Shown here: in pieces, positions 4,964 through 18,815 of the stretch
Layout of the letters: every line of letters begins with the position of its first letter
Numbering within the stretch: the stretch's first letter is position 1
NCBI GenBank assembly: GCA_022821275.1
Contig: JAJEDY010000067.1
Span: 47,958-111,957, forward strand
From: Candidatus Latescibacterota bacterium
Lineage (GTDB): Bacteria; Latescibacterota; UBA2968
Length of the DNA stretch: 64,000 nucleotides
Direction: 5' to 3'
Made by a program: the position numbers and the translations under genes
The notes under the pieces: model-generated
Databases searched by the model: none
What the model saw: the letters and a program-made list of their open reading frames with translations, nothing else
Told to the model about the DNA's origin: nothing

Positions 4964-4967
4964 CCTC

Positions 4968-5615
4968 TCACACCTCGCGTATCACAACGAGTTCTGGCGT
5001 CTTGCCCCCGCCCAATTCCTCGGCGCGGCCAATCAAATGGCTGAGTTGCGCTCGCGTCGTCTTCAAAAAAACCATCGCCTCCGCAGCTTCTCGCACCCCA
5101 TCCTCCCTGCGATAGATTGAACGGATACTCGGCGCAACAGTTCCGCCCATCGCCAAATTTTCTTTAACAAGTGTCTCACCGAGTTTCTGTGCCCGCGCTT
5201 CTGTACGCATCGCAATCAACACCCCCAGAGGATCTTCACCCGACTCGGCACGCAACCCCCTTCTAAAGACACGGAAAATCGCCCACAAAACCAGCAGAGC
5301 AATCACAACAGCGATCCCTTTCGCAACCTGGCTCGCAATATTCCGAATCGCCGCATCTCTTTCCATGCGCACTTCTTCCAGCCGCTGTTTTTGTTCATCG
5401 AGAAAAACCACATCCTCCGCCAATTGCGCGGTCATGCGCTCGACCCATGCAACCTGCTCTGCCGTCAGAGAATCCCCCTCTGCTAAAACCGCCCGCGCCA
5501 CATGTCGCGCAATGCTCTCGAGCCGTTCCACATTCACCTGTCCCTCAGTGGGCATACACATCGCAAAAAACAAAGCGATAAATGCGCCCGCGCCAAAAAT
5601 ATGTCGATATCTCAT
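4968..5615 (-). CDS. Hypothetical membrane-anchored protein (start uncertain; ORF is open to 5774)
   Basis: The ORF is open over 4968..5774. The internal start MRYRHIFGAGAFIALFFAMC at 5615 has a GGAAAGG ribosome-binding site and avoids overlap with the divergent gene at 5721. It has a signal peptide or TM helix plus a central hydrophobic helix. Confidence 0.45.
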   Translation of the reverse strand: MRYRHIFGAGAFIALFFAMCMPTEGQVNVERLESIARHVARAVLAEGDSLTAEQVAWVERMTAQLAEDVVFLDEQKQRLEEVRMERDAAIRNIASQVAKGIAVVIALLVLWAIFRVFRRGLRAESGEDPLGVLIAMRTEARAQKLGETLVKENLAMGGTVAPSIRSIYRREDGVREAAEAMVFLKTTRAQLSHLIGRAEELGGGKTPELVVIREV

Positions 5616-5720
5616 AAAACGACCTTTCCCTGTCAAATTTCCTTTGTTTTTCTCCCGTACTTTCAGCAATATAGGACACAGAAATGCTACGAGCAAGAGG
5701 CTGAGAACAAGGAGACACAA

Positions 5721-6815
5721 ATGACACCCGAACAACTCGGTTTTAATTCGCAAAAACTCGACCGCGCCAGGCAAGTCTTACAACGCCACGTGCATACGCG
5801 CACCACCCCCGGTGCTGTCGGTCTCGTCCTGCGCCGTGCGGGCATCGTCACCTGCTGGGCCGTGGGCCACCACACCTATCACCCCAACGCCACACCCGTA
5901 CAAATCAATACCCTCTACGACCTCGCCTCCGTCACCAAAGTCATCGCCACCACAACACTCTGCATGTTATTTGTCGATAAGAATCGTCTCAACCTCGACG
6001 CACCCGTACAATTTTACGTGCCCTCCTTCACCGGAAAAAACAAAAACCGCGTCACAGTTCGGCATCTGCTCGCCCATTGCAGCGGCCTGCCCGCACATGT
6101 TCACCTGTACGAAAACCAACGCACAGCGCGCGATATTGACATCCGCGAGGCCATGCTCAACGCAGCGTGCCAACACCCCTTAATTTATGAACCCGGCACA
6201 GACACCGTGTACAGCGACCTGGGCTTTCTCACCCTGGGAAAAATCCTCGAAACCATCGGCGGCCAGCGTCTGGATCACCTCGTCAAACAGCACATATTCG
6301 AACCGCTCAAAATGAACGACACCAGGTACTGTCCACCGCCCCATCTCAAACACCGCATTGCCCCCACGGAAGACGGCTCCGACTTGCGCGATCACCTCGT
6401 ACACGGTGAAGTCCACGATGAAAACACCGCCGCAATGGGCGGTATCGCCTCCCACGCCGGTCTTTTTTCCACAGCACATGACCTGTCGAAATGCCTGCTC
6501 GCCTGGCTCGGTGCAGGCACCTTTCCCAAACGGAGCATCCCACAATTTACCACTCGCGCTAATATCGCGCCCAACAGCACCTGGGCACTCGGCTGGGACA
6601 CGGTCTCACCCGGCGCAAGTTCGAGCGGCCGCTACTTTAGCGAACAATCCTTCGGCATCCTCGGTTTCACCGGCACATCCGTATGGGGAGACCCCATACG
6701 AGACCTCGGCGTCATTCTCCTCACCAACCGCGTACACCCCACCCGCGAGAACAATCAAATTGCCCATCTCCGCCCCGAATTTCACGACGCAATCTCCGAA
6801 GCCTTAATCGCATAA
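5721..6815 (+). CDS. Serine hydrolase, beta-lactamase (class C-like)/PBP family
   Basis: SxxK motif (ASVTKV) near the N-terminus and overall beta-lactamase-related fold. AAGGAG ribosome-binding site 7 nt before the ATG at 5721. No signal peptide. Confidence 0.75.
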   Translation: MTPEQLGFNSQKLDRARQVLQRHVHTRTTPGAVGLVLRRAGIVTCWAVGHHTYHPNATPVQINTLYDLASVTKVIATTTLCMLFVDKNRLNLDAPVQFYVPSFTGKNKNRVTVRHLLAHCSGLPAHVHLYENQRTARDIDIREAMLNAACQHPLIYEPGTDTVYSDLGFLTLGKILETIGGQRLDHLVKQHIFEPLKMNDTRYCPPPHLKHRIAPTEDGSDLRDHLVHGEVHDENTAAMGGIASHAGLFSTAHDLSKCLLAWLGAGTFPKRSIPQFTTRANIAPNSTWALGWDTVSPGASSSGRYFSEQSFGILGFTGTSVWGDPIRDLGVILLTNRVHPTRENNQIAHLRPEFHDAISEALIA

Positions 6816-6868
6816 AAGAGGAGCAAGCCCTATGACATTGCTCCTCTTTTTAGTTTTAAAATCCAACA

Positions 6869-8788
6869 TCACCGCGTCACCCGAATCGTCCACCCGCCCT
6901 GCAGCTCGGGATTCTTAATCGTCAGAGTAATCCTTCGCAATAGATCTCCCCAAACCGTCTTCAATCGCGCGTCTTCAATCGCGATATCCTCAACCGCCAC
7001 ATCGAACACATCCGCCTCGTAGTACAAACGCCCCGCGCCAGACATGCGTCCATCCGCCAACGCCACCTCACTCAAGGCAATTGTACCATCGCCACAATCT
7101 TCAACGCCACACGCCGTCAACACATTCATCACAACATCGCCCATCACAGCTTTCAACGCATATTGATCTGCAATCGTCACACCCTCGCCGCGATGCAAAA
7201 CAACCGTCCGCATCCACGAATCAATCTGAGCCTCTGGCGGATAGGCCTGCGCCAGATCTAGAGTAAACGTTGCATCCGCCTCGCTCGCCGCATAAGACAC
7301 ATCTCGAGCCGCAATATCGTAGTGATAATCAATCCCCGCCTCGGAATAAACCCGCCCGGGAATCTGCATCTGTCCATTCACCGTCGGCAACGTATGATAC
7401 TGAGACTGCATCGTCCAGATATCATACCGCGTACTGCTAAACGTCTTCGCCGTATAAGTCTCGACCCCCGCATCCACGAGCACGGGCTTGCCATCCAGAT
7501 AGACCACCACGTGCCCGATATCATTGTGATTGTGACTCTCGGCATTGTGCCCGCCCTTTGCCCCCACAAAAAATCCATCTGCCGACCCGCCTTGATCGCG
7601 TGCGACAAACACCTCAATCTCATCCAAAAACACATCGCGCGGCAACGGCGGCGCAGCATCTGCGTCGAGAATCTCATTCAACGAAAACAGCGCGGGCAAC
7701 GCCCGCCCCATGCTCCCAAAAGACTCCGAAATACCCTTCTCGGCAGCACCCTGTTGTTTTGCAGCCCACGCCCCGAGAGCCACCATCGCATCATCCCCAA
7801 TGCGCTTGCCATAGCCATAGGCAACCGCAAAAGCCGGCATCACCACGGGTGACGCATCGGCAAAATTGATAAAATATCGATCCGCAATCTGCACCCGATA
7901 GATAAACTTGCCAATATTCTGAACGAGCGGTTCGTCGTACACATCAATCGCCCCACCCGTTGCACTGTAAAGCCATTCCAAACAATCGTAAAGCGATGCC
8001 CCCGCACGCCCCCAATAGCCCGGCCCCTCGTCACACCCACCGTCTTTCGGATATGGATCGATAAAATGATCCACCGTCTGCATTGCCTTAAACACCGACG
8101 CAACCCGACGCGCCTCATCGGTCTCCATCAACAAAGTAGAAGTCAACCAATTCGACACAATCCACGGATTCCAATTGTTCACGCGCGCACCCGAATACCC
8201 CATCCAGCCAAAGTCTTCGCGCTCCAACAAAGGCGTCAAAATGCGATATTGCATCTCACGCGCAATGCGCGGCACAATCAAAGGCGAAACCGCGTCGAGT
8301 TGCGCGCCGAGCAAATACACCGTCCACGCCAACAATTCCGACGTCTCTGCGGCAAACAGATCGACAATCGGCTCAGCCGTATCCGGCAGGCCACTACCCG
8401 CCTTTTGAACGCCAATATGCGCGGGCACACCCCAGAAAGACTCCTCGCAAATACACCAGATACCATTGGTAATATCATCCAAAAATCTCCCTTTCCCCTC
8501 CACGCATTCTGCCAGAACCAGATCGGACAGCGCCGTGCGCCGCCCAAAACTCAAACTCTCGTACCGCGAGCGATTCCCATTGCGCGCATAATCCAAAAAC
8601 CGCACCGCAGGCACGCCTGGCCATTCAAAATTCAGGCGATCTTCCCCACGCGCAATTTGCGCCTGCCGCACCGCGTCTGGCAACGCATCCCACGCATAGC
8701 GCATTAACGCCGTGGGAAAAGGCCGCCAATCATCCCGCGGAATCAAAATATCTTTTAACACGTCTTCCGAATACTTTTGCGAAAGCAT
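6869..8788 (-). CDS. Heparinase II/III-like protein (polysaccharide lyase family), no signal peptide
   Basis: 639 aa. Alginate-lyase-like N-terminal region and the characteristic GHNAESHNHNDIGHVVVY segment of the heparinase II/III C-terminal domain. Confidence 0.8.
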   Translation of the reverse strand: MLSQKYSEDVLKDILIPRDDWRPFPTALMRYAWDALPDAVRQAQIARGEDRLNFEWPGVPAVRFLDYARNGNRSRYESLSFGRRTALSDLVLAECVEGKGRFLDDITNGIWCICEESFWGVPAHIGVQKAGSGLPDTAEPIVDLFAAETSELLAWTVYLLGAQLDAVSPLIVPRIAREMQYRILTPLLEREDFGWMGYSGARVNNWNPWIVSNWLTSTLLMETDEARRVASVFKAMQTVDHFIDPYPKDGGCDEGPGYWGRAGASLYDCLEWLYSATGGAIDVYDEPLVQNIGKFIYRVQIADRYFINFADASPVVMPAFAVAYGYGKRIGDDAMVALGAWAAKQQGAAEKGISESFGSMGRALPALFSLNEILDADAAPPLPRDVFLDEIEVFVARDQGGSADGFFVGAKGGHNAESHNHNDIGHVVVYLDGKPVLVDAGVETYTAKTFSSTRYDIWTMQSQYHTLPTVNGQMQIPGRVYSEAGIDYHYDIAARDVSYAASEADATFTLDLAQAYPPEAQIDSWMRTVVLHRGEGVTIADQYALKAVMGDVVMNVLTACGVEDCGDGTIALSEVALADGRMSGAGRLYYEADVFDVAVEDIAIEDARLKTVWGDLLRRITLTIKNPELQGGWTIRVTR

Positions 8789-8847
8789 TTATTCCTCCGT
8801 TAATTAAAGCTATCATTCCGACTCTCAACAACAGGAGCAAGAACACC

Positions 8848-9837
8848 ATGCCACTCAAAATTGCACAAATCGGCAGCGACGGACATCAGAACATGGTACT
8901 CGACGGCATCGCGCACATCCCCGACGCACAACTCATCGCCTGCGCCAAAGGGCATCCCGACGACACCCTCGCCAAAATCAAAGCACACGCAGCATTCACC
9001 GCACACACCCGCCTGTATGACGACTATCGCCACATGCTCGACACCGAAGAAATCGATCTCGTCAGCATCTGTCGTCCGTATTCTCTCAATGCCGAAGCCT
9101 CAATAGCAGCAGCAAACCGCGGAATCGACATCGTCAGCGAAAAACCCGTTGCAACCACTCTGAAAGATCTCGACGCCCTTGAAACAGCGGTCAAAAACAG
9201 CGGTATTCGCCTCACCGCCATGTTTGGCCTGAGATTATCCCCCGCATTCCGCGCTGCACACCAGGCAGTCCAGGACGGCCTCATCGGCGAACCCATTCTG
9301 GCAACCGCACAAAAATCCTATCGCTTTGGCACGCGCCCGGACTTTTTCAAACAGCGAGAAACTTACGGCGGCACAATCCCCTGGGTCGCAATCCACGCTG
9401 TCGATTACACGCGCTGGACAACCGGGCGTGAATACACGCAAGTCGCCGCCCTTCACGGCAACCTCGCCCATCCCGACTATCCCGGCTGCGAAGACCACGG
9501 CGGCATGCTCTTTCGCCTGAGCAATGGCGGCACGGCAATGATCAACCTCGATTATTTGCGCCCGTCAACAGCACCCACCCACGGCGACGACCGCCTCCGA
9601 ATCGCCGGATCAGAAGGCGTCATCGAAGTCATCGACGACCACACACATCTGATTCGCTCGGGCGAAGCACCCCGCGACCTGCCCTTGCCACCCGAAGAAA
9701 ATTTTCTCGTCAACCTCCACGGCGAACGCACCGGCAAAGCACCCCACATCATCGGTCCCGACGAAGCCATCAAAGTCACGCGCCTGTGCCTGCGTGCACG
9801 CGAAGCCGCGGACACGGGCAATGTGCTCACACTCTGA
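8848..9837 (+). CDS. Gfo/Idh/MocA family oxidoreductase
   Basis: N-terminal Rossmann region MPLKIAQIGSDGHQ... and the EKP motif (IVSEKPVATT). Confidence 0.85.
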   Translation: MPLKIAQIGSDGHQNMVLDGIAHIPDAQLIACAKGHPDDTLAKIKAHAAFTAHTRLYDDYRHMLDTEEIDLVSICRPYSLNAEASIAAANRGIDIVSEKPVATTLKDLDALETAVKNSGIRLTAMFGLRLSPAFRAAHQAVQDGLIGEPILATAQKSYRFGTRPDFFKQRETYGGTIPWVAIHAVDYTRWTTGREYTQVAALHGNLAHPDYPGCEDHGGMLFRLSNGGTAMINLDYLRPSTAPTHGDDRLRIAGSEGVIEVIDDHTHLIRSGEAPRDLPLPPEENFLVNLHGERTGKAPHIIGPDEAIKVTRLCLRAREAADTGNVLTL

Positions 9838-9872
9838 GGGGTTGGGGACCAGGGGATGGTGAGGATGGGTGG

Positions 9873-9907
9873 ACTTCACACTTCTCACTTCACACTTCTT
9901 ACTTCTT
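9873..9907. repeat. Tandem heptamer array (ACTTCAC ACTTCTC ACTTCAC ACTTCTT ACTTCTT), preceded by a G-rich tract 9838-9872; copy A of a dispersed family
   Basis: Five perfect-phase 7-mers read directly from the sequence. They sit between the convergent Gfo and M24 peptidase genes and overlap the last codons of the peptidase. Confidence 0.8.
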
Positions 9908-11032
9908 CAACACCAGCGGATAATCCGTCAAATTTTGCACCCCGTCTTCCGTCACCAAAAACGTATTCTCCAATCGGATACCCCCGTTCAAAGCCTCGCT
10001 ATACGCACCCGGCTCACAGGAAAAAACCGTGCCCACCTCAAAAATACCTTCCCGGTCCCGGTTCAAATCGGGCGGTTCGTGTGCGCGAATCCCCACGCCG
10101 TGTCCCGCGTGATGAATCAGCCCGATATCGGACAAATGCGGATGCTCTCGGATTCTCTCATCAATCGCGTGCCACAGTGCAGTTCCCCGTCCACCAGGCC
10201 CTACCAGATTGGGAACATCCTCTAAAATAGCTTTCAAAAGATCGTACACCGACGCCTGCAAATCCGTGGGATCGCCCACGGCAAAAGTGCGGCACAGATC
10301 GGACCAGTACCCGTGATATTCCGTCTGCGCGTCGATAACATACAACTCCCCATCTTCAATAATCCGGTCTCTGGCAGGCCCGCCCAATTGCCCGCACTGG
10401 TAATCGCCCCCGTGGTGCAGCACTTCACCCGCTGCATTTAGCGCGACCTGTTGCCCCGCCGCGAGCACATCCAGTTCATTTACACCCGGCGCAATCACCT
10501 CTTGTACGCGGTCATAAGCCCGCAGATTAATATCAATCGCCTTTTGCAACATCGCAACTTCATCGGCGTCCTTACTCATCTGCTGTGCAATCAGCAAATC
10601 GTCTATCCCCACCCACGCGCAGCCCAGAGCATCTGCCATTGTATCGGCGAGCAACTTGGGCGTGGCTTCCTGCTGCCAGCCCAAACGAGAAATACCCCGG
10701 CAATCGCGGAGCTTCTGCGCCACAGCCGCATTTAGCAAACGCATCGGATCGGGATTCATCGTATAGAGCACATGCGAATCGTACACCACGCGCTCATCCA
10801 CAGCCACATCCCCTTCGTCGGTCGTTGACGCCAGCCACGACCCCCCATCGGTCTCCAGATACAGAAGCGCGGGAAAAGAAAATGATGGATATGCCCCCAG
10901 GAGCACGCCGGTCAAATAATAGATATCCCGATAATCTGTAATAATAACCGCGTCAATCCCCTCCTCAGAGAGACGCGCTCGAAATCGCTGCTGCCTGCTG
11001 CGGCAGCCTTCCAAAGTGAGCATAACACACAT
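9899..11032 (-). CDS. M24 family metallopeptidase (Xaa-Pro aminopeptidase/creatinase-like)
   Basis: Pita-bread-fold motifs (HGVGIRAHEPP, GIRLENTFLVTEDG) and a creatinase-like N-terminal domain. Possible alternative start at 11023 (MLTLEG). Confidence 0.8.
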   Translation of the reverse strand: MCVMLTLEGCRSRQQRFRARLSEEGIDAVIITDYRDIYYLTGVLLGAYPSFSFPALLYLETDGGSWLASTTDEGDVAVDERVVYDSHVLYTMNPDPMRLLNAAVAQKLRDCRGISRLGWQQEATPKLLADTMADALGCAWVGIDDLLIAQQMSKDADEVAMLQKAIDINLRAYDRVQEVIAPGVNELDVLAAGQQVALNAAGEVLHHGGDYQCGQLGGPARDRIIEDGELYVIDAQTEYHGYWSDLCRTFAVGDPTDLQASVYDLLKAILEDVPNLVGPGGRGTALWHAIDERIREHPHLSDIGLIHHAGHGVGIRAHEPPDLNRDREGIFEVGTVFSCEPGAYSEALNGGIRLENTFLVTEDGVQNLTDYPLVLKK

Positions 11033-11127
11033 CCTTTCCGTGAAATCCTGTTGGTAAATCCCTATTTTTTTCGCATAATACAGGACGCATTTTCACAACC
11101 AACCCAATTTAACAACAGGAGTGCATC

Positions 11128-12171
11128 ATGCCAGAAAAAAAAGTCCGCGTATGTGTCGTCGGTATGGGCATTGGAAAACCCAATGGCCGCGCCCTTGCGA
11201 AAAATGATCGCGGCGAAGTCGTCGCACTATGCGACCTGATCCCCGAAAGAATGGAAGAATTTGCCAGCGAACTGCCCGGCGAACAAAAATTTTACACCGA
11301 TTACAAAGAAATGTGCAAAGCCCCCGACATCGACGCGGTTTTTGTAGGCACTCCAAACCAGTGGCATGTGCCCATCGCACTCGAAGCCGTCAAAAACGAC
11401 AAACACGTCATGGTCACCAAACCGCTCTCGGACTCTGAACAGGCAGCAAAAGAACTCGTCGAAGCCGCCGAAGCATCTGGCGTCGTCAACATGATGTCGC
11501 TCTCCACCCGATTTTCCGACCAGTGCCAATACCTGGGCGACCTCGCGCGCGAAGGCTATTTTGGCGACCTTTACTATGCCCGCGCCCGCAGCGTACGCCG
11601 AAGCGGCATCCCCGCGTGGAACCTCGGATTCATCCAAAAAGGCGGCGGCGCATTCCGCGACATGGGCGTCCACGTTCTCGACGCCGTGTGGTACTTACTC
11701 GGCATGCCCAAACCCGTCACCGTCACAGGCGTGTGCGGCGCAAAATTTGGACCGCGCGGACGCGGCTACTGGGGCTTTAGACAAGTCCCGCGCAGCACCT
11801 ACGAACAATACGCCGCTGACGACTATGCTGGCGGATTCATCCGCTTTGAAAACGGCGCGGGACTCCAGGTCGAAAGCTTCTGGGCATCTCATCAGCCCAA
11901 CGAACTCCAGATCGAACTCTTTGGCGACGAAGCAGGCGCGCAATTCCGTCCGCTCAAACTCTACAAAACACAGGACGGTGTCCCGCACGACATCGCCGTC
12001 GATATTCCGCTTGCAACCCAGGCATGGGATCGCATTGCGGGCCACTTTATCGACTGCATCCTCGACGGCAAAACCTGCGAAGCACCCCTGCGCCACGGAT
12101 ATCAAGTGCAGCAAATGATGGAAGCCGTGCTCGAAAGCGGCGAAACAGGACGGGAAATTCGCATTGACTAA
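11128..12171 (+). CDS. Gfo/Idh/MocA family oxidoreductase
   Basis: VRVCVVGMGIG Rossmann motif and the VMVTKPL segment. 347 aa. Confidence 0.85.
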   Translation: MPEKKVRVCVVGMGIGKPNGRALAKNDRGEVVALCDLIPERMEEFASELPGEQKFYTDYKEMCKAPDIDAVFVGTPNQWHVPIALEAVKNDKHVMVTKPLSDSEQAAKELVEAAEASGVVNMMSLSTRFSDQCQYLGDLAREGYFGDLYYARARSVRRSGIPAWNLGFIQKGGGAFRDMGVHVLDAVWYLLGMPKPVTVTGVCGAKFGPRGRGYWGFRQVPRSTYEQYAADDYAGGFIRFENGAGLQVESFWASHQPNELQIELFGDEAGAQFRPLKLYKTQDGVPHDIAVDIPLATQAWDRIAGHFIDCILDGKTCEAPLRHGYQVQQMMEAVLESGETGREIRID

Positions 12172-12174
12172 TCC

Positions 12175-13383
12175 ATGGAGATCCCCATGACAGGCTTACA
12201 CATCACCGTCGGACAAAAAAACGCCGACATCATCGGCAATGACAACCGCGCGTTACAAGCTGCTGTCGATTACATCGCCGCACTCGGCGGAGGCACGGTT
12301 GAAATCCTATCCGGCACGTACATCATGCGCGACGCGCTCCATCTTCGCAGCAACATCACCGTCAAAGGACAGGGCGAAAATACCACATTGCGGAAAGCAG
12401 ACGGCGTTGAGACCCCACTTCTCCTCGACGGAGATTTTGGCGAAGAACAGATCACCCTTGAAAATCCCGATGGATTCAAAGTGGGCTATGGCGTCAGCAT
12501 CACAGATGATCAGGGCGGTGGATTTCACACCGCCGTCGGCACCATCCTCTGGCAAAAGGACAATACCTTTGGCGTCAATGTGCCCATGGGGGGCGATTAC
12601 CTCGTCTCTCGCAATGCGCGTGCTGCCACCACCTTCCCGGTCATCAGCGGCTACCACATCGAAAATGCCCGGATCGAAAATCTGACTGTAGATGGCAACC
12701 GCGAAAACAATCCGCACCTCAACGGTTGCCGCGGTGCCGGCATATTCCTCTACCGCGGGCATCATACCACCCTGATAGACTGCGCGATCAAAAATTATCA
12801 CGGCGATGGCATCAGCTTCCAGCAGAGCCAGTATGTCACAGTCGAAAACTGCACCTGCACGGGCAATACCCACCTGGGTCTGCACCCGGGCAGTGGCAGT
12901 CAGCACCCCATCATCCGCAACTGCCGCTCGGAAAACAACGGGCGCATTGGTCTCTTCCTGTGCTGGCGCGTCAAACACGGCGTCTTTGAAAACAATGACC
13001 TCATCGGCAATGGCGACACGGGCATCTCCATTGGCCACAAAGACACCGACAATGTGTTCTGCAATAACCGATCACTGCGCAACGGCTGTGAAGGCATACT
13101 CTTCCGCAATGAATCCGAACCCATGGGCGGGCACCGAAACACCTTTGAGAACAACCAGATCCTCGACAACGGCGACAAAAACAAAGGCTATGGCGTGCGA
13201 ATCCTGGGGGAAACCCACGACCTTACCTTCACAAATAACCGCATTGGCAATGACGAAACAGCAACACAGCGCATTGGCGTTCACATCGGTGAAAAAGCCG
13301 ACCGCATTCATCTCAACAACAACGACCTGTCGGGCAATCTCGACGCCGAAATCGAAGACACACGACAAGTCGTTTCAGTCTAA
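12175..13383 (+). CDS. Right-handed parallel beta-helix repeat protein (pectate-lyase-fold, GH28/PL-like), no signal peptide
   Basis: Repeated NxxGxGI / asparagine-ladder segments (NNRIGNDE, NNDLIGNGDTGISIGH, GNTHLGLHPG). Start may instead be 12187 (MTGLHI), which has a GGAG ribosome-binding site. Confidence 0.65.
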   Translation: MEIPMTGLHITVGQKNADIIGNDNRALQAAVDYIAALGGGTVEILSGTYIMRDALHLRSNITVKGQGENTTLRKADGVETPLLLDGDFGEEQITLENPDGFKVGYGVSITDDQGGGFHTAVGTILWQKDNTFGVNVPMGGDYLVSRNARAATTFPVISGYHIENARIENLTVDGNRENNPHLNGCRGAGIFLYRGHHTTLIDCAIKNYHGDGISFQQSQYVTVENCTCTGNTHLGLHPGSGSQHPIIRNCRSENNGRIGLFLCWRVKHGVFENNDLIGNGDTGISIGHKDTDNVFCNNRSLRNGCEGILFRNESEPMGGHRNTFENNQILDNGDKNKGYGVRILGETHDLTFTNNRIGNDETATQRIGVHIGEKADRIHLNNNDLSGNLDAEIEDTRQVVSV

Positions 13384-13497
13384 ACAAAATTGACTTTTTG
13401 CTGTGATCGCATATTTTGTTCACGACATTGAACATGATGAACAGAAGCGTTCGCTTTCGCAAAACCTCTCGCAGTAGCACAGATCGATAAGGGTCCC

Positions 13498-15120
13498 ATG
13501 CAAGGTGTACCAATAAATATTGATAACCTGATCCACGCCAGATCGGTTGAAGACAACCGCAGAGAGTTCAAAGCGACCTGGAATGATGCCGTAAAGGAAT
13601 CGGTAGTTCGGAGCGTGTGTGCATTTGCTAATGACTTACTAAATCTAAACGGCGGGTACGTCATCCTGGGCATCGACACAGATGAACAGGGCCGTCCTAT
13701 ATTGCACCCGCGTGGTCTCGGTCATCTCGATCTCGATCATATCCAAAGAGAGATATACGGACAGTGTAATCGCATTGATCCCATGTACCAGCCACTCGTA
13801 TTCCCCGAGACATACCGAGGTGAGACAATACTGATTATTTGGGCACCCGGCGGCGATAATCGGCCCTATCAAGCTCCGAAACGCGGACGCGGTGGCGAAC
13901 GGGAATACTATGTGCGGCAAGGCTCCAGCACTGTTGAGGCGAGAGGCGAAATACGCACCCAACTCATAGAGCAAACAGCACGGATACCATTCGACGACCG
14001 GCGCAGCCTAATTGCCAAAGTCGAGGACATATCTCCTACGCTGGTCCGCCGATTTCTTTCGGATGTACGAAGCGATTTGATACAGACCGGAACGAATGTC
14101 GCAGATAGCGACCTGTATCAGCGGATGCGAATCGTCGTCCGCCTCAATGATCACTACGCGCCGCGCAACGCAGCCATCCTGTTCTTCAACGAGACCCCGG
14201 ACAGTTTCTTTGACGGTGCGCGAATCGAGATTGTGCAGTTCGGTGACGATGCGGGAGGCGATTTAATCGAAGAGAGAACCATTACCGGACCGCTCAACGA
14301 ACAGATCAAACTCACTTTAGACTACCTCAATTCACTCACAGACGTTATGCTAAAAAAACGACCGCGAGAGGCCGAAGTAGATCGCGCGGTCACATATCCC
14401 TACGAGGCGATGGAGGAAGCGGTCGTCAACGCCGTATATCATCGTTCTTATGACAACCTGCGCGAACCCACGAAGATATATCTATACCCGGATCGCATGG
14501 AGATCATCAGTTATCCGGGGCCGCTGCAAGGCATTGAGGCACATCATCTCGTTCGGGATGGTGTTGTACCTCCCGTACCTGCGCGAAATCGACGAATAGG
14601 TGAGTTTTTAAAAGAATTGAGACTGGCCGAAGGGCGGGGAACAGGACTGCCCAAAATTCGTCGTCGGATGGCAGAAAATGGGTCTCCAGAACCGCTATTC
14701 GACTACGATGAAGGGCGGACGTATTTTCGCGTTATCCTGCCTGCTCATCCGCGTTACAAGGTTATTCATGCGTTGAGAGAAAGCGCGTTGCTGTGGTCAA
14801 CAGGCGAGCGTGACGCGGCACTTTCACATTTGAAAAGAGCCTTTGATACCCAGCCGAGTTCGGGCGCATTGGCAAGCCAACTCATAGACTATCTGATAAC
14901 GATGGATGACCTCGCAACAGCGGAACGCGTTTTTACGCAGTTTGATTCTCAGCCCTTGAAGGCCGAAACCGCCCAGCCATACCTGGTGTATGCGGCAGCG
15001 TTACTCGACAGAAACCAACCCCAAAAAGCACGTAGAGTTTTAGATATGATGCTGTTATCCGGCGCATCAGAAAACACACTTGAAACAGCAAGACTCCGGA
15101 AGCGGTTGGACGAGTTTTGA
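13498..15120 (+). CDS. Schlafen-like AlbA_2 domain + HATPase_c_4 (RecG-C-terminal-like) protein with a TPR-like helical tail
   Basis: AlbA_2 signature ...SVCAFANDLLNLNGGYVILGIDTDEQG.... HATPase_c_4 signature ...AVVNAVYHRSYD...EIISYPGPL...RNRRIGEFLKELRLAEGRGTGLPKI. The C-terminal ~120 aa are helical repeats. The flanks are AT-rich and a terminator follows. Confidence 0.75.
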   Translation: MQGVPINIDNLIHARSVEDNRREFKATWNDAVKESVVRSVCAFANDLLNLNGGYVILGIDTDEQGRPILHPRGLGHLDLDHIQREIYGQCNRIDPMYQPLVFPETYRGETILIIWAPGGDNRPYQAPKRGRGGEREYYVRQGSSTVEARGEIRTQLIEQTARIPFDDRRSLIAKVEDISPTLVRRFLSDVRSDLIQTGTNVADSDLYQRMRIVVRLNDHYAPRNAAILFFNETPDSFFDGARIEIVQFGDDAGGDLIEERTITGPLNEQIKLTLDYLNSLTDVMLKKRPREAEVDRAVTYPYEAMEEAVVNAVYHRSYDNLREPTKIYLYPDRMEIISYPGPLQGIEAHHLVRDGVVPPVPARNRRIGEFLKELRLAEGRGTGLPKIRRRMAENGSPEPLFDYDEGRTYFRVILPAHPRYKVIHALRESALLWSTGERDAALSHLKRAFDTQPSSGALASQLIDYLITMDDLATAERVFTQFDSQPLKAETAQPYLVYAAALLDRNQPQKARRVLDMMLLSGASENTLETARLRKRLDEF

Positions 15121-15246
15121 CAGGGAAATAATAGAGGATATCTACAGAATGATTGACCAGTGGTTGATGCAGAAGGGTATCATCCCTCATTAGATGAGGA
15201 AAAATATTGAATATCGACTCGGGGACATTCTAAATGCCAAATAAAG

Positions 15247-15281
15247 AAGCCCTCCTGCGAAGAACAGGAGGGCTTTTGTTC
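15247..15281. terminator. Rho-independent terminator, likely bidirectional
   Basis: AAGCCCTCCTG / CAGGAGGGCTT stem with a 7-nt loop. T-rich runs on both strands. It lies between convergent genes. Confidence 0.7.
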
Positions 15282-15303
15282 TAAAAAACTGTCCACTTTA
15301 CCG

Positions 15304-16816
15304 TCAACATCCCTCACGCGGTATTTCACTATACCAGTCGCGATGAAAAATCGCTTTTTCACCTTCATGAACCACAACTTTATTCGTCAGATAAAACAGT
15401 CTCTCATCACAGCGCATGTCACTCTGCGTCTCTACCCGGACACGCCATGCGCCTCTAACGAGCGCAATTTCCCGCTCACACTTTGCGGTCGCTGAAAGTG
15501 GATCCTCCATTTTGATTTCCCACTGATCCTTCGCCCGCTCATCTAACTCAAGCCCATCCTCAAACCGCAAACGCCCGCCATCCGTCAAAACTTCATAAAT
15601 CAGTTTTTCATCAACCGCATGCCAATGTCCAGCGGGAAACTGCCCTGACTTGCGAAGCACGCTGTGTTTCAGTTCAGAGGCACCTTCGGGTTCACCATAA
15701 GGTGTTTTCAGAGCTTGACCAGACCATATAGGCAAACGCAAACACCCACCATTCAGTCGCAAAGTCACCGGCTCAGGTGACGGCCATGCCTGGGGCCAAT
15801 ACGCGGGCGATAAAGATACGCGCAGTGCATTCCCTTCAGATATGCGACAGCCAATGGCATTGAGCCTCACAGTGACATCCAATATCTCGTCGGGTTTGAG
15901 ATATCTGACCACCTCGTGCGTTTCGCCGTGCGCCAGATTGAGCAACCCCCAGCTCAAAAGTGCTGACGTGCCGCCTGGGAAAACCTCACACAATCTCACG
16001 GATATGAGTGCGCGTTCCCTATTCGCAGACAAGCGCATAGACACCTCGGGAAAACCCAGAATATCGAGCGATTCCTCTAAAGGTCGCGATGTGAAAGTCA
16101 CGGACCGCCCATCTTCTGCACGCTGATCCGGCGGATAATCACCTATGACACCCATCGGACACCAATTTCCAGAATCCTGTCCGTGTGCCAGCGTTCCAGA
16201 AATAACCATATCGCCCACCTGCCTGGCTTCTTCGCCAAGTGATCCGTCCATGCCCAACGGATATTCGCACAATTTACCACAGGGCCAGATAGGCTCTTCT
16301 ATCCAGAACCCCGGCCAGGTCTTGTGATTGGCGGCTGGCTTTTTACTCTCCTGCATCCACACGCGCAAAGCAGGCTCCTCCATAATGCCAGTATCTATAC
16401 CCTTCAACCAGTAATCCCACCACCGCAAACATTCCTGCAAAAACCCAATCGCAGGACCGGGAGTCCCTCGTTCGGGAATTGGTGTGCCCAGGGGCCAATC
16501 AGCCCTTTTTTCGGGCAGGACAATCCTTCGAGCAATCGGGGAATCGCGTTGGTATAGCCATATCGCCACTCCCCCGCATATCCACGCGAATTGAGGCATA
16601 TCCATGACCGGCAAAATAGGGATGATGCACCGAATCCCGCACAGCAGTACCATCGCTTTTGCGGTACGGCAAATATTCCAGAATACCCGGCACGGGATTT
16701 TGTTCTGCATCTTCTGGCAACCAGATACGCGCGGCCAATCGCGTGCCATCTGACAGTGGAATCCAGACATGCTCAATCTCCCGAACAGGTCGGGGAAATT
16801 CGGTAATCACGCGCAT
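15304..16816 (-). pseudogene. CocE/NonD family (S15 X-Pro dipeptidyl-peptidase-like) hydrolase, disrupted by a frameshift and apparently missing its catalytic core
   Basis: The N-terminal ~85 aa (MRVITEFPRPVREIEHVWIPLSDGTRLAARIWLP...YASIRVDMRGSGD) are in one frame and end at 16499. Homology resumes in another frame at the post-catalytic WWDYWLKGIDTGIMEEPALRVWMQE motif only ~50 codons later. No GxSxG nucleophile elbow is present in either frame. Confidence 0.7.
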
Positions 16817-16827
16817 AAATATCACCC

Positions 16828-18321
16828 CTACAAATCGACAACTCGGGGTTTTGGCTGGCTTTTGCGCCCGTGCAAATACGCGTCGTTTTCCGAAGGCCAG
16901 CGCATGCGGTATTGCTTGCTGCGCTGACGTTTGTATCCGGCATTGTAATAATTGCTCGTCGCCATCCAACTGAGCAAATCCGCGAACATCTCGCCTTTCA
17001 CATCGGCGTATTCAGACCTATCCCACACATTCCACAACTCTCCGGGATCGCGGTTTAAATCATACAACTCGCCTTCTGCTTGCCCGATATAATACACCAT
17101 CTTATGGGTCTGTGACCGCATCATAATCTGATAGTTATCCTCGCAAAAAACGTATTTCCGAGGCACGGGCGTCTCTCCATTCAAATACGGCATCAAAGAG
17201 CGACCCTCCAAATAGGTTGGAACAGCTACCCCCGCAGCCTCTAAAATCGTCGGACCCAAATCCATAAGCGAAACCAGATCGCGCGTTTCGCCGGGTTGAT
17301 CAACAGATTGCGGCGTGCGAATCATCAGCGGAATATGAACAATCGGATCGTACATCAACCACTTATACGCCAACCCGTGATCGCCCAGCATCTCGCCGTG
17401 ATCGGAACAAAAAATCAACAAACTATTCTCCAACCACCCCCGCGCTTGCAGGGCGTCCATAATCTCGCCCAGCTTTTCATCAACCGTCGAAATATTCCCG
17501 TAATAATGCCGCTTCATCTCGGCGAGTTCATCATCTGTGCGCCCGCGCAAATTGATTTGCGACTCGTGATCAGTCGTCGCGTGCATATCCAGATGCGCCG
17601 CATGTTGCGGTGGCTTCTCTTCCAACTCCCCATCCCGCTTCACACACGGCGGCATCTCCCGATCGCGATACAGATCCAGATGCCGCGGCAAGGGATCCCA
17701 GGGTTCATGAGGTCCCGTAAATCCAACCTGGAGAAACAGCGGATTATCTCCCCGGTGATTGCGGATCCAGTTCAACGCGGAATCTCCGATAAACACATCG
17801 CTGTGAAATCGCTCCTCCTCGTGCCACACAACCCCCTGACACTTATTGAGCCATTCGGAATCGAACTTATTGCGATCATTGGGCCGCTTCACATTGTGAA
17901 ACGTCATATACCTGCCCCAATCGTCATCAGCCCCACCACTGTCCAGCGCCTTATTCGTGGGATTTTCTACAATAACGCGCTCGTGAAATCCACCCGGAAC
18001 ATCGCGCGGCGTCATGTGCATCTTGCCGATATTCACGCAATAGTAGCCCGCATCCGACAAATCCTGCACCCAGTTGCGGTGATTCGCCCAGTGATCAAAA
18101 CTATAAACGCCCGTCGTATGCGGGTACATACCCGTAAAAATCGCCGCCCGCGACGCCACGCAGGTCGCCCCGGGACAATACGCCTGGCGAAACGACACAC
18201 TCTCACGCGCGAGCCGATCCAGCGTGGGCGTCACCATATAATCATATCCCCAGGCGTGAATGGTATCAAAACGCTGCTGATCGGTAATCACAAAAATAAT
18301 ATGGGGCCTGCCATTAAACAT
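16828..18321 (-). CDS. Sulfatase (type I, formylglycine-dependent family) with a C-V-A-S-R variant motif; no signal peptide
   Basis: N-terminal IIFVITDQQRFD, the motif ATCVASRAAIFTG (a (C/S)x(P/A)xR variant), and C-terminal sulfatase-domain features. 497 aa. Confidence 0.8.
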   Translation of the reverse strand: MFNGRPHIIFVITDQQRFDTIHAWGYDYMVTPTLDRLARESVSFRQAYCPGATCVASRAAIFTGMYPHTTGVYSFDHWANHRNWVQDLSDAGYYCVNIGKMHMTPRDVPGGFHERVIVENPTNKALDSGGADDDWGRYMTFHNVKRPNDRNKFDSEWLNKCQGVVWHEEERFHSDVFIGDSALNWIRNHRGDNPLFLQVGFTGPHEPWDPLPRHLDLYRDREMPPCVKRDGELEEKPPQHAAHLDMHATTDHESQINLRGRTDDELAEMKRHYYGNISTVDEKLGEIMDALQARGWLENSLLIFCSDHGEMLGDHGLAYKWLMYDPIVHIPLMIRTPQSVDQPGETRDLVSLMDLGPTILEAAGVAVPTYLEGRSLMPYLNGETPVPRKYVFCEDNYQIMMRSQTHKMVYYIGQAEGELYDLNRDPGELWNVWDRSEYADVKGEMFADLLSWMATSNYYNAGYKRQRSKQYRMRWPSENDAYLHGRKSQPKPRVVDL

Positions 18322-18354: not shown

Positions 18355-18573
18355 CTACAAATCCTCCCAAATTTCTCGGCTGACATTCGCTTGCTGCAAA
18401 ATCCTGTGCAAAAGCCCACGCCCAATATCACCTTGATGCGGATTGGGAATGGCAAGACGTTTTGTTTCTCGAATCATATAATGATGCTTGCCTCCAGGAT
18501 ACGGCCCTTCAAATCCCAATTGTCTCAAATAGCGAATTAGATCGCGGCGACTAATTGGTCCAAATTTGGGCAT
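18355..18573 (-). CDS. hicA: HicA family mRNA-interferase toxin (type II TA)
   Basis: MPKFGPISRRDLIRYLRQLGFEGPYPGGKHHYMI... matches the HicA/YcfA-like fold. Its start overlaps the hicB stop as TAATG. Confidence 0.7.
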   Translation of the reverse strand: MPKFGPISRRDLIRYLRQLGFEGPYPGGKHHYMIRETKRLAIPNPHQGDIGRGLLHRILQQANVSREIWEDL

Positions 18574-18815
18574 TAAACGGGCTCCAATACAGTATCCAAA
18601 CGCACCCCATCTACCTCCGGAAGTGGATGCCCCATCCTCAAACCGAGAATGATCCAACCCTCGAGCACGGATTGCAATTCCTCACGACACATTTCTAAGG
18701 TATTTGCATTGGCATACACACCTTGAAAGCCTGCAATTTCTCCATAAAACGTTTGATCATCAAGGATCTCGTATTTCGCGTGTTTCATAGCGGATTGAAT
18801 ATATGTAGTTAGCAT
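18573..18815 (-). CDS. hicB: HicB family antitoxin (UPF0150-like)
   Basis: MLTTYIQSAMKHAKYEILDDQTFYGEIAGFQGVYANANTLEMCREELQSVLEGWIILGL is the typical HicB N-terminal domain. It is translationally coupled to hicA. Confidence 0.7.
   Translation of the reverse strand: MLTTYIQSAMKHAKYEILDDQTFYGEIAGFQGVYANANTLEMCREELQSVLEGWIILGLRMGHPLPEVDGVRLDTVLEPV

Follow-up and report, generated by a model that had tools for sequence, protein, structure and literature searches.

It was only in 2025-2026 that prokaryotic Schlafen (SLFN) proteins, namely Cash, SLFN-pAgo and Avs9, were shown to act in immunity as effectors that cleave tRNA. The pairing of an SLFN_AlbA_2 domain with a GHKL domain (PF13749) has been defined as the Schlatpase supradomain by Kuzmenko et al. 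(bioRxiv 2026, 10.64898/2026.05.29.728809). It was present in 60,692 of 103,533 prokaryotic SLFN proteins, and more than 90% of Schlatpases carried a C-terminal helix-turn-helix (HTH). Tetratricopeptide repeats (TPRs) were a minority C-terminal fusion in that work, named in its Extended Data Fig. 1b and not studied. The same report gave E(x)4(D/E)xK and an SAFAN box as the SLFN nuclease signature, and E314/N318 of RzAgo, the SLFN-pAgo of Runella zeae, as the Mg-ATP residues of the GHKL domain. RzAgo binds and hydrolyses ATP, forms a GHKL-driven tetramer and cleaves tRNA via its SLFN motif; its paired SLFN domains mimic the mammalian two-lobed nuclease, and tRNA is cleaved once the sensor is triggered (10.64898/2026.05.29.728809). 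RzAgo genes are found close to restriction-modification (RM), toxin-antitoxin (TA) and BREX genes. Cash is a demonstrated tRNase (PMC13462974). Avs9 is toxic on expression, and this toxicity depends on the predicted AlbA_2 nuclease site, which uses E14, D19, D45 and E65 (PMC12680541). In this study, we analysed a gene at 13498..15120 (+) in a 64,000-nt stretch of Candidatus Latescibacterota bacterium DNA (contig JAJEDY010000067.1, positions 47,958 to 111,957; hereafter the window). Its 540-aa product is a stand-alone member of the Schlatpase class with the TPR sub-architecture catalogued in 2026.

Judged from its sequence, the protein is probably a tRNA-cutting, ATP-switched SLFN RNase gated by a TPR sensor. 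With moderate confidence, we lean towards a reading in which this TPR-gated, stand-alone Schlatpase would serve as a single-gene conflict system carried on a mobile cassette of promoter and open reading frame (ORF).

Domain architecture and conserved residues

The ORF and its translation gave a protein of 540 aa, and an identical called protein is carried by the ENA metagenome scaffold KELL22-1 scaffold_339 (80 kb). Pfam placed SLFN_AlbA_2 (PF04326) at the N-terminus (aa 18-148, E 7.9e-14; 13549..13941, +), HATPase_c_4 (PF13749) after it on the same polypeptide (aa 325-414, E 3.5e-14), and TPR_14/TPR_19 at aa 430-516. An AlphaFold2 (AF2) model (mean predicted local distance difference test score (pLDDT) 86.9, predicted template modelling score 0.81) resolved the SLFN domain as an alpha/beta fold, followed by a helix (aa 151-161), a small linker domain and then a Bergerat-type alpha/beta sandwich. 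The GHKL ATPase fold spans aa ~241-416 (14218..14745, +), and the TPR domain spans aa 418-536 (14749..15105, +), where seven helices form 3 TPRs and a capping helix (3.5 repeats). No HTH was found in the protein by Pfam, and in the AF2 model the last GHKL strand (aa 410-415) leads straight into the TPR helices, which begin at aa 418. Pfam and the AF2 structure thus agree with the first-pass annotation of this DNA, which had described a Schlafen/AlbA_2 and HATPase_c_4 fusion with a TPR tail in place of the HTH. The tail consists of tandem ~34-aa helix pairs in a right-handed solenoid with a capping helix, as in 3-repeat TPR domains of the peptide-binding type. It was most like the 3-TPR units of HOP/STI1/RPAP3 type, which clamp the C-terminal peptides of chaperones. 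With the TPRs the protein reaches its end (aa 540), and it has no PAZ/MID/PIWI Argonaute core. Pfam detected no helicase domain, and the 'RecG' label is a Pfam naming artefact. No NCBIfam family model was matched, apart from sub-threshold TPR noise.

The SLFN nuclease motif is present as E18-DNRR-E23-F-K25 (E18-x4-E23-x-K25) with the box C41-AFAN-D46, in which N is residue 45, and it is conserved in 119-120 of 120 homologues. The first residue of the box is C, where SAFAN has S. An acidic pair, D60/D62, is also present in this domain. Taken together with E307 and N311 of the ATPase, these residues were conserved in 119-121 of about 120 homologues. The next region (13945..14217, +), described from the AF2 secondary structure, includes the helix at aa 151-161 and the motif D166-D167-R168, which is invariant in the homologue alignment. 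In the GHKL domain, E307-x3-N311 is invariant in 121 of 121 sequences, as are G341 and T382-G383; D332 and G381 belong to the same set of residues. We infer that E307 and N311 are the Mg-ATP residues equivalent to E314 and N318 of RzAgo, a correspondence drawn from the shared E-x3-N and the similar numbering.

Selection was measured on six close Latescibacterota copies. The ratio of nonsynonymous to synonymous substitution rates (dN/dS) was 0.08-0.18 overall, 0.03-0.14 in the SLFN domain, 0.05-0.14 in the linker and GHKL region, and 0.21-0.60 in the TPR tail, where substitutions were few. On these few substitutions, the tail has evolved 3-6 times faster than the enzymatic domains, as would be expected for a sensor. 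Since the motifs are intact and dN/dS is about 0.1, these results indicate that the gene is intact, functional and selectively maintained.

The anti-phage and nucleic-acid-sensing link proposed in the first-pass annotation held at the level of homology. The PADLOC SLFN-pAgo model PDLC02394 matched aa 29-412 at 1.3e-21, covering only model positions 50-434 of 1121; the corresponding RzAgo module is an ATP-switched tRNase, and the catalytic motifs are intact here. A profile match to the SLFN domain of Cash had an E of 0.005. We found no literature holding both 'Schlafen' and 'HATPase_c_4'.

The protein shares with the Schlatpases both domains in the same order, the conserved E(x)4(D/E)xK motif, SAFAN-type box and GHKL E...N residues, and a stand-alone gene without a fixed partner and with a distribution suggestive of horizontal transfer. 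It differs from them in its short 3.5-repeat TPR end, whereas over 90% of them end in an HTH. With RzAgo it shares a homologous N-terminal module of ~440 aa, and its helix at aa 151-161 matches the RzAgo helix that is part of the dimer interface (10.64898/2026.05.29.728809). Unlike SLFN-pAgos, it has neither PAZ/MID/PIWI nor a guide RNA sensor, and it measures 540 aa against 1,071-1,187 aa. RM, TA and BREX genes occur close to RzAgo genes but mostly not to those of the window family. Two other AlbA_2-HATPase_c_4 proteins come from structural genomics, DIP2311 of Corynebacterium diphtheriae (PDB 3lmm) and the nuclear magnetic resonance domain 2kyy. Both are functionally uncharacterised and only ~17% identical to the window protein, and 3lmm has another C-terminal region with no TPR.

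Avs9 and SAMD9/SAMD9L follow the same logic, in which an AlbA_2/SLFN nuclease is followed by an NTPase switch and TPRs, and E14/D19/D45/E65 of Avs9 are equivalent to E18/E23/D46/D60-62 of the window protein. Their switch is a STAND P-loop NTPase, whereas that of the window protein is a GHKL Bergerat fold; the window protein is also far smaller and lacks SIR2, SAM and OB domains. The NTPases are not homologous, and the likeness is analogous, a convergent architecture, and not family membership. Cash (CbCash, PDB 9ylu) has in common the SLFN domain, and is a tRNA endonuclease, but it carries a Csx15 cA4 sensor, is linked to type III CRISPR and has neither GHKL nor TPR. No CRISPR locus was found near the window gene.

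The same domains could also belong to a nucleic-acid-binding ATPase or regulator that has no nuclease activity and uses its TPRs as a scaffold. Database names such as 'RNA-binding domain-containing protein', 'putative DNA-binding' and 'RecG-like' agree with this, the HTH that over 90% of Schlatpases carry points to DNA-related roles in the class, and the SAMD9 AlbA_2 structure (7ksp) was solved with DNA bound. However, the window protein has no HTH, and 'RecG' names no helicase domain here. Moreover, all the acidic catalytic residues are invariant, as is the K of E(x)4(D/E)xK, and a pure binder would hardly account for this. We therefore regard a non-nuclease role as unlikely and retain the reading of the protein as an RNase.

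Phylogenetic spread and the C-terminal tail

More than 4,000 database proteins match the window protein, and at least 572 loci were found in a genome scan. The closest genomes are Candidatus Latescibacterota metagenome-assembled genomes (MAGs) with 93-98% protein identity; relatives with more than 90% identity came from ENA/NCBI only and none from JGI. The hosts include Latescibacterota, Dehalococcoidia/Chloroflexota, Spirochaetia, Cyanobacteria, Acidobacteriota, Desulfobacterota, Planctomycetota, Bacteroidota, Pseudomonadota and methanogenic or methanotrophic archaea. Across bacterial phyla and archaea, members were 46-62% identical to the window protein, and sequences of Latescibacterota and Dehalococcoidia were interleaved at 72-80% identity in a neighbour-joining tree. 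This cross-phylum identity and the interleaved tree indicate horizontal transfer.

Plasmids searched by tblastn held distant Schlatpases only, at no more than 47% identity and mostly in the SLFN-GHKL region alone. Carriage by phages was considered and rejected, viral contigs having given a single partial match. An enterobacterial gene was likewise rejected, as megablast of the locus against E. coli genomes gave no match.

The window protein represents a minority length form of the family. Among the 120 best homologues, 101 are 640-710 aa long and 11 are about 540 aa. An AF2 model of the long form (P0005, pLDDT 86.5) showed 13 tail helices, or ~6.5 TPRs. The window protein is without the distal ~115 aa (three more repeats) of most homologues and stops after helix 7, exactly at a repeat boundary. 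Other short-tail copies of ~536-549 aa (P0010, P0017, P0018, P0024, P0039 and loci L004-L013) all end after TPR helix 7 as well, and one short-tail clade is common to Latescibacterota and Dehalococcoidia. The truncation is conserved across the clade down to 72% identity. In the tree, short forms appear at four or more separate positions, and the C-terminal peptide left over differs from one to the next; the losses of the distal tail were therefore independent.

Searched for exhaustively on its own, the tail matched 62 cluster representatives at E <= 1e-3, and 22 of them at E <= 1e-10. In 9 of the 10 tail matches checked with Pfam, HATPase_c_4 lay upstream of the tail, and the tenth (P0164) was a generic TPR protein. 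On these grounds the tail was rejected as a module common to other effectors. One family member of 882 aa (P0132) combines SLFN_AlbA_2, HATPase_c_4 and 3 TPRs with a Ser/Thr kinase (Pkinase, E 1.2e-38) that replaces the distal TPRs.

The promoter-gene cassette and its flanks

The gene lies in a block that keeps its borders whatever flanks it. In locus L017, blastn gave 93.5% identity over exactly 13389-15123, with unrelated flanks on both sides; the surroundings there are pyrimidine-biosynthesis, regulatory and housekeeping genes (sigma-54 regulator, YdjM, DHOD-B Fe-S subunit, carbamoyl-phosphate synthase). Homology also restarts at 13389 in L008 and L003. Five different upstream junctions all abut (A)TTGACT, directly upstream of the -35 box, and three different downstream sequences start right after the stop codon. 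This homology block common to related Latescibacterota genomes (13389..15123, +) behaves as a discrete, self-contained cassette of promoter and gene. In two more distant Latescibacterota (L004 and L005, ~80% identity), the copies lie beside gamma-glutamyltranspeptidase and M20 peptidase genes. No flanking repeats or att-like sites were found around the cassette, only short repeats at chance level.

A consensus scan gave a putative sigma-70-like promoter, TTGACT-16 nt-TATTTT (TATAAT in L003), at 13390..13417 (+), which coincides with the left border of the cassette. It is followed by a 5' leader of ~80 nt (13418..13497, +) that on sequence reading holds an AAGGG ribosome-binding site at 13489-13493. 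With its own putative promoter and a convergent next gene, the gene sits between transcription units and not, as had been proposed, inside a metabolic operon.

Within the four related MAGs (L001, L002, L003 and L008), the window is colinear over 4964..15120 at 91-96% nucleotide identity, and colinearity resumes at 16824. Since the gene occupies the same locus in all four and its divergence equals that of its flanks, it is not a recent insertion in this lineage. The gene is vertically stable at this locus within the Latescibacterota species group, though it has spread horizontally among bacterial and archaeal phyla. The cassette borders and the phylogeny thus support horizontal mobility of the gene.

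We compared the composition of the gene with that of the 34 window genes of at least 250 codons. Its GC content was 0.518 against a window mean of 0.519 (z = -0.46), and the GC content at third codon positions (GC3) was 0.52 (z = -1.0). Its synonymous-codon divergence from the rest of the window was 0.114 bits/codon (Kullback-Leibler z -0.87), which ranks 6 of 34 from the low end. The flanks of 114 nt and 183 nt had GC contents of 0.43 and 0.41, like ordinary intergenic DNA (spacer mean 0.45), and the downstream genes 0.526-0.529. The highest GC3, 0.60-0.67, was found in the six upstream genes at 5502..13383 (heparinase-like, two GFO/IDH/MocA, M24 peptidase, beta-helix and others), with codon divergences of 0.20-0.40 bits/codon that are among the most atypical in the window. 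These upstream genes, and not the Schlafen gene, are the local compositional outliers, either through high expression or through separate ancestry. The Schlafen gene seems AT-rich locally because of them.

The first-pass annotation had described an AT-rich, compositionally distinct gene with like flanks, and had itself named uniform GC and codon usage as the finding that would speak against it. On comparison the gene was uniform with the window, and the compositional islet is not real. The typical composition and the shared locus in the four MAGs do not bear out the horizontally inserted islet that it proposed; mobility as such is borne out by the sharp cassette borders and by a tree that mixes phyla and domains. 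For this window the analysis mainly corrects the earlier reading, and what is specific to the strain is the neighbouring PepX_C segment described below.

Two related explanations were largely refuted by these data, namely a single-gene island of foreign composition that was acquired recently, or a decaying remnant truncated at its C-terminus. The GC3 of 0.52 against 0.60-0.67 in the upstream neighbours would speak for a foreign island, but composition and codon usage are typical of the window, and locus and divergence are the same as for the flanks in four MAGs. A remnant would agree with a protein ~115 aa shorter than 101 of the 120 closest homologues, but the motifs are intact at a dN/dS of ~0.1, and the truncation falls exactly at a TPR repeat boundary, is clade-conserved to 72% identity and arose at least four times independently. 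We consider both highly improbable and keep to the maintained, mobile cassette.

Several smaller features lie at the cassette borders. Directly after the putative -10 hexamer, a palindrome TGTTCA-N6-TGAACA (TGTTCA-CGACAT-TGAACA) occupies 13418-13435, with a third TGAACA 3 nt past it (region 13418..13444). It looks like an operator, but it is not conserved, as different deletions in L002 and L003, apparently due to recombination between the repeats, remove parts of the TGTTCA/TGAACA array. Different inserts abut the cassette in the related MAGs: a C-terminal fragment of TnpB (Cas12f1-like_TNB) with a downstream hairpin next to the -35 box in L008 (103..566), a 25-nt insert in L002, and a 120-nt insert in L003 (9797..9915). 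The hairpin stem of the last (GCCCTCCTG/CAGGAGGGC) equals the stem of the window terminator at 15249-15273. Window positions 13384-13389 look like an insertion hotspot.

Downstream, between the convergent genes, a bidirectional intrinsic-terminator hairpin lies at 15247..15275. Its stem is 11-13 bp with perfect 11-bp arms and T-runs on both sides, and either strand folds with a dG of -22.6 kcal/mol (z -5.7 and -5.2). The upstream flank and leader showed no significant fold (z -0.77 against shuffled sequences) and no terminator, and nothing in the flanks came near Rfam gathering thresholds. The gene had been described as bracketed by a strong bidirectional terminator; one such hairpin exists, downstream, while upstream there is a putative promoter instead. 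A REP/PATE-like repeat family was rejected for this hairpin, as it occurs once in the window and was otherwise seen in L003 only, again as a single copy.

The hairpin falls in a 1.7-kb segment, 15121..16823, which has no counterpart in L001, L002, L003 and L008 and is the true strain-specific indel of the region. The hairpin therefore probably belongs to this neighbouring insertion and not to the cassette. On the minus strand, the segment holds a 490-aa ORF (15304..16776) that matches only the non-catalytic PepX_C domain and may be an N-terminally incomplete hydrolase of the CocE/NonD type.

Proposed function and genomic context

By analogy with the described systems, the GHKL domain would bind ATP and form dimers or tetramers, and this oligomerisation would pair the SLFN domains into the two-lobed Schlafen architecture. 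The paired SLFN domains would be an active, metal-dependent endoribonuclease, with tRNA as the likely substrate and shutdown of translation as the consequence. The TPR tail, of the peptide-binding 3-TPR type, would fill the place of the Argonaute core in SLFN-pAgo or of the HTH in most Schlatpases. It may be a sensor or an autoinhibitory module, so that binding of a protein ligand would gate activation. The most likely role would be a single-gene abortive infection system against phages or mobile elements, and the gene would travel as a minimal cassette of promoter and ORF.

A more specific version of this scheme is speculative, and we hold it to be possible rather than probable. TPR-tailed Schlatpases would form an autonomous, single-gene immune sensor that shuts down translation outside defence islands. 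A HOP-like TPR clamp would directly recognise either a protein of a phage or mobile element or the infection-perturbed tail of a host chaperone, and would thereby release the ATP-assembled SLFN tRNase. The repeated, independent losses of the three distal TPRs, one of them in the window protein, would retune or unlock the sensor, and the whole would be a GHKL-based convergent analogue of Avs9/SAMD9.

About 60,000 proteins carry the SLFN-GHKL module, and almost none have been studied. The TPR-tailed family is a compact, stand-alone representative with intact active sites, clear cassette borders and natural long- and short-tail variants. It is convenient for asking how a sensor that is neither Argonaute nor HTH gates a Schlatpase, and with it one can test whether genes of this kind function in immunity even outside defence islands. 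The recurrent short-tail form and the location outside such islands are its only mildly unusual aspects.

Neighbourhoods were scanned over 238 immediate (±2) neighbours at 67 non-redundant loci, without a background control. The neighbours fell into 256 different Pfam families, the commonest being TPR, GDT1, AAA_21/AAA_15 (in 6 and 4 of 119), ABC transporters and metabolic enzymes. PADLOC matches at 1e-10 were few and partly generic. Defence-like neighbours comprised AAA_21/AriA-like ATPases in 5-6 loci (AriA-like in 5 by PADLOC), mad3 in 4 and a few methyltransferases. When 1,220 ORFs from 80 loci were clustered all against all, no partner gene emerged beyond lineage-specific synteny, and this absence of a conserved neighbour in 76 loci fits a single-gene system.

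A defence role is plausible by homology alone, and the genomic context does not support it. Several observations weigh against it. The ±2 neighbours are overwhelmingly housekeeping, and no clear defence-island signature emerged from the 67 loci scanned without a background control, so that the expected placement in defence islands was not found. In this the family contrasts with what has been reported for SLFN-pAgos and for AlbA_2 clades generally. In the window, the neighbouring genes serve polysaccharide catabolism and encode a heparinase II/III-like protein, two GFO/IDH/MocA oxidoreductases, an M24 peptidase, a beta-helix protein and two sulfatases; the beta-helix gene ends at 13383, and a sulfatase gene lies at 16828..18321. 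Viral contigs almost never carry the family, a single partial match having come from 2.9 M of them. For an immune gene, the family's sequences are unusually well conserved. The window copy is also without the distal half of the TPR tail, so its regulation may differ from that of the long form. The Schlatpase-TPR class is also functionally uncharacterised, its activity being predicted from homology only.

Much of this context would suit the same machinery, an ATP-switched SLFN RNase with a TPR adaptor, in an endogenous, non-immune role, such as stress- or chaperone-coupled turnover of RNA or tRNA, or translational control triggered by a host ligand. The mostly housekeeping neighbourhoods, the cassette of L017 among pyrimidine-biosynthesis and regulatory genes, the strong purifying selection with very high cross-phylum conservation, and the resemblance of the tail to chaperone-clamping HOP/STI1/RPAP3-type units all agree with it. 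However, the family occurs patchily and out of step with host phylogeny, its site in the genome differs even within a single phylum, and tail modules have been lost recurrently, all of which are typical of accessory conflict genes and not of core physiology. In addition, the prokaryotic SLFN proteins characterised so far have all been shown to be components of defence (RzAgo, Cash) or are at least associated with it (Avs9). We judge the endogenous role to be rather unlikely, and continue to prefer the single-gene conflict system.

In 10 of 76 loci, among them L018, L045 and L067, a member of one ORF cluster lies no more than 10 kb from the family gene; in L045 and L067 the two are at most 150 nt apart. 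This cluster may be that of the AAA_21/AAA_15 (AriA/AbiEii-like) neighbour ATPases. This cluster is the only recurrent neighbour that is possibly defence-like, and it is too infrequent for a partner.

Near the gene in the window, the sole known defence-type gene pair is a HicA toxin gene (18355..18573) with a HicB-like UPF0150 gene (18573..18815), on the minus strand. The pair lies between two sulfatase genes, 3.2 kb downstream of the Schlafen gene, and has a GC3 of 0.39. Since its position relative to the second sulfatase gene is swapped in L001 and L003 and the pair is missing in L008, it is a small mobile TA cassette.

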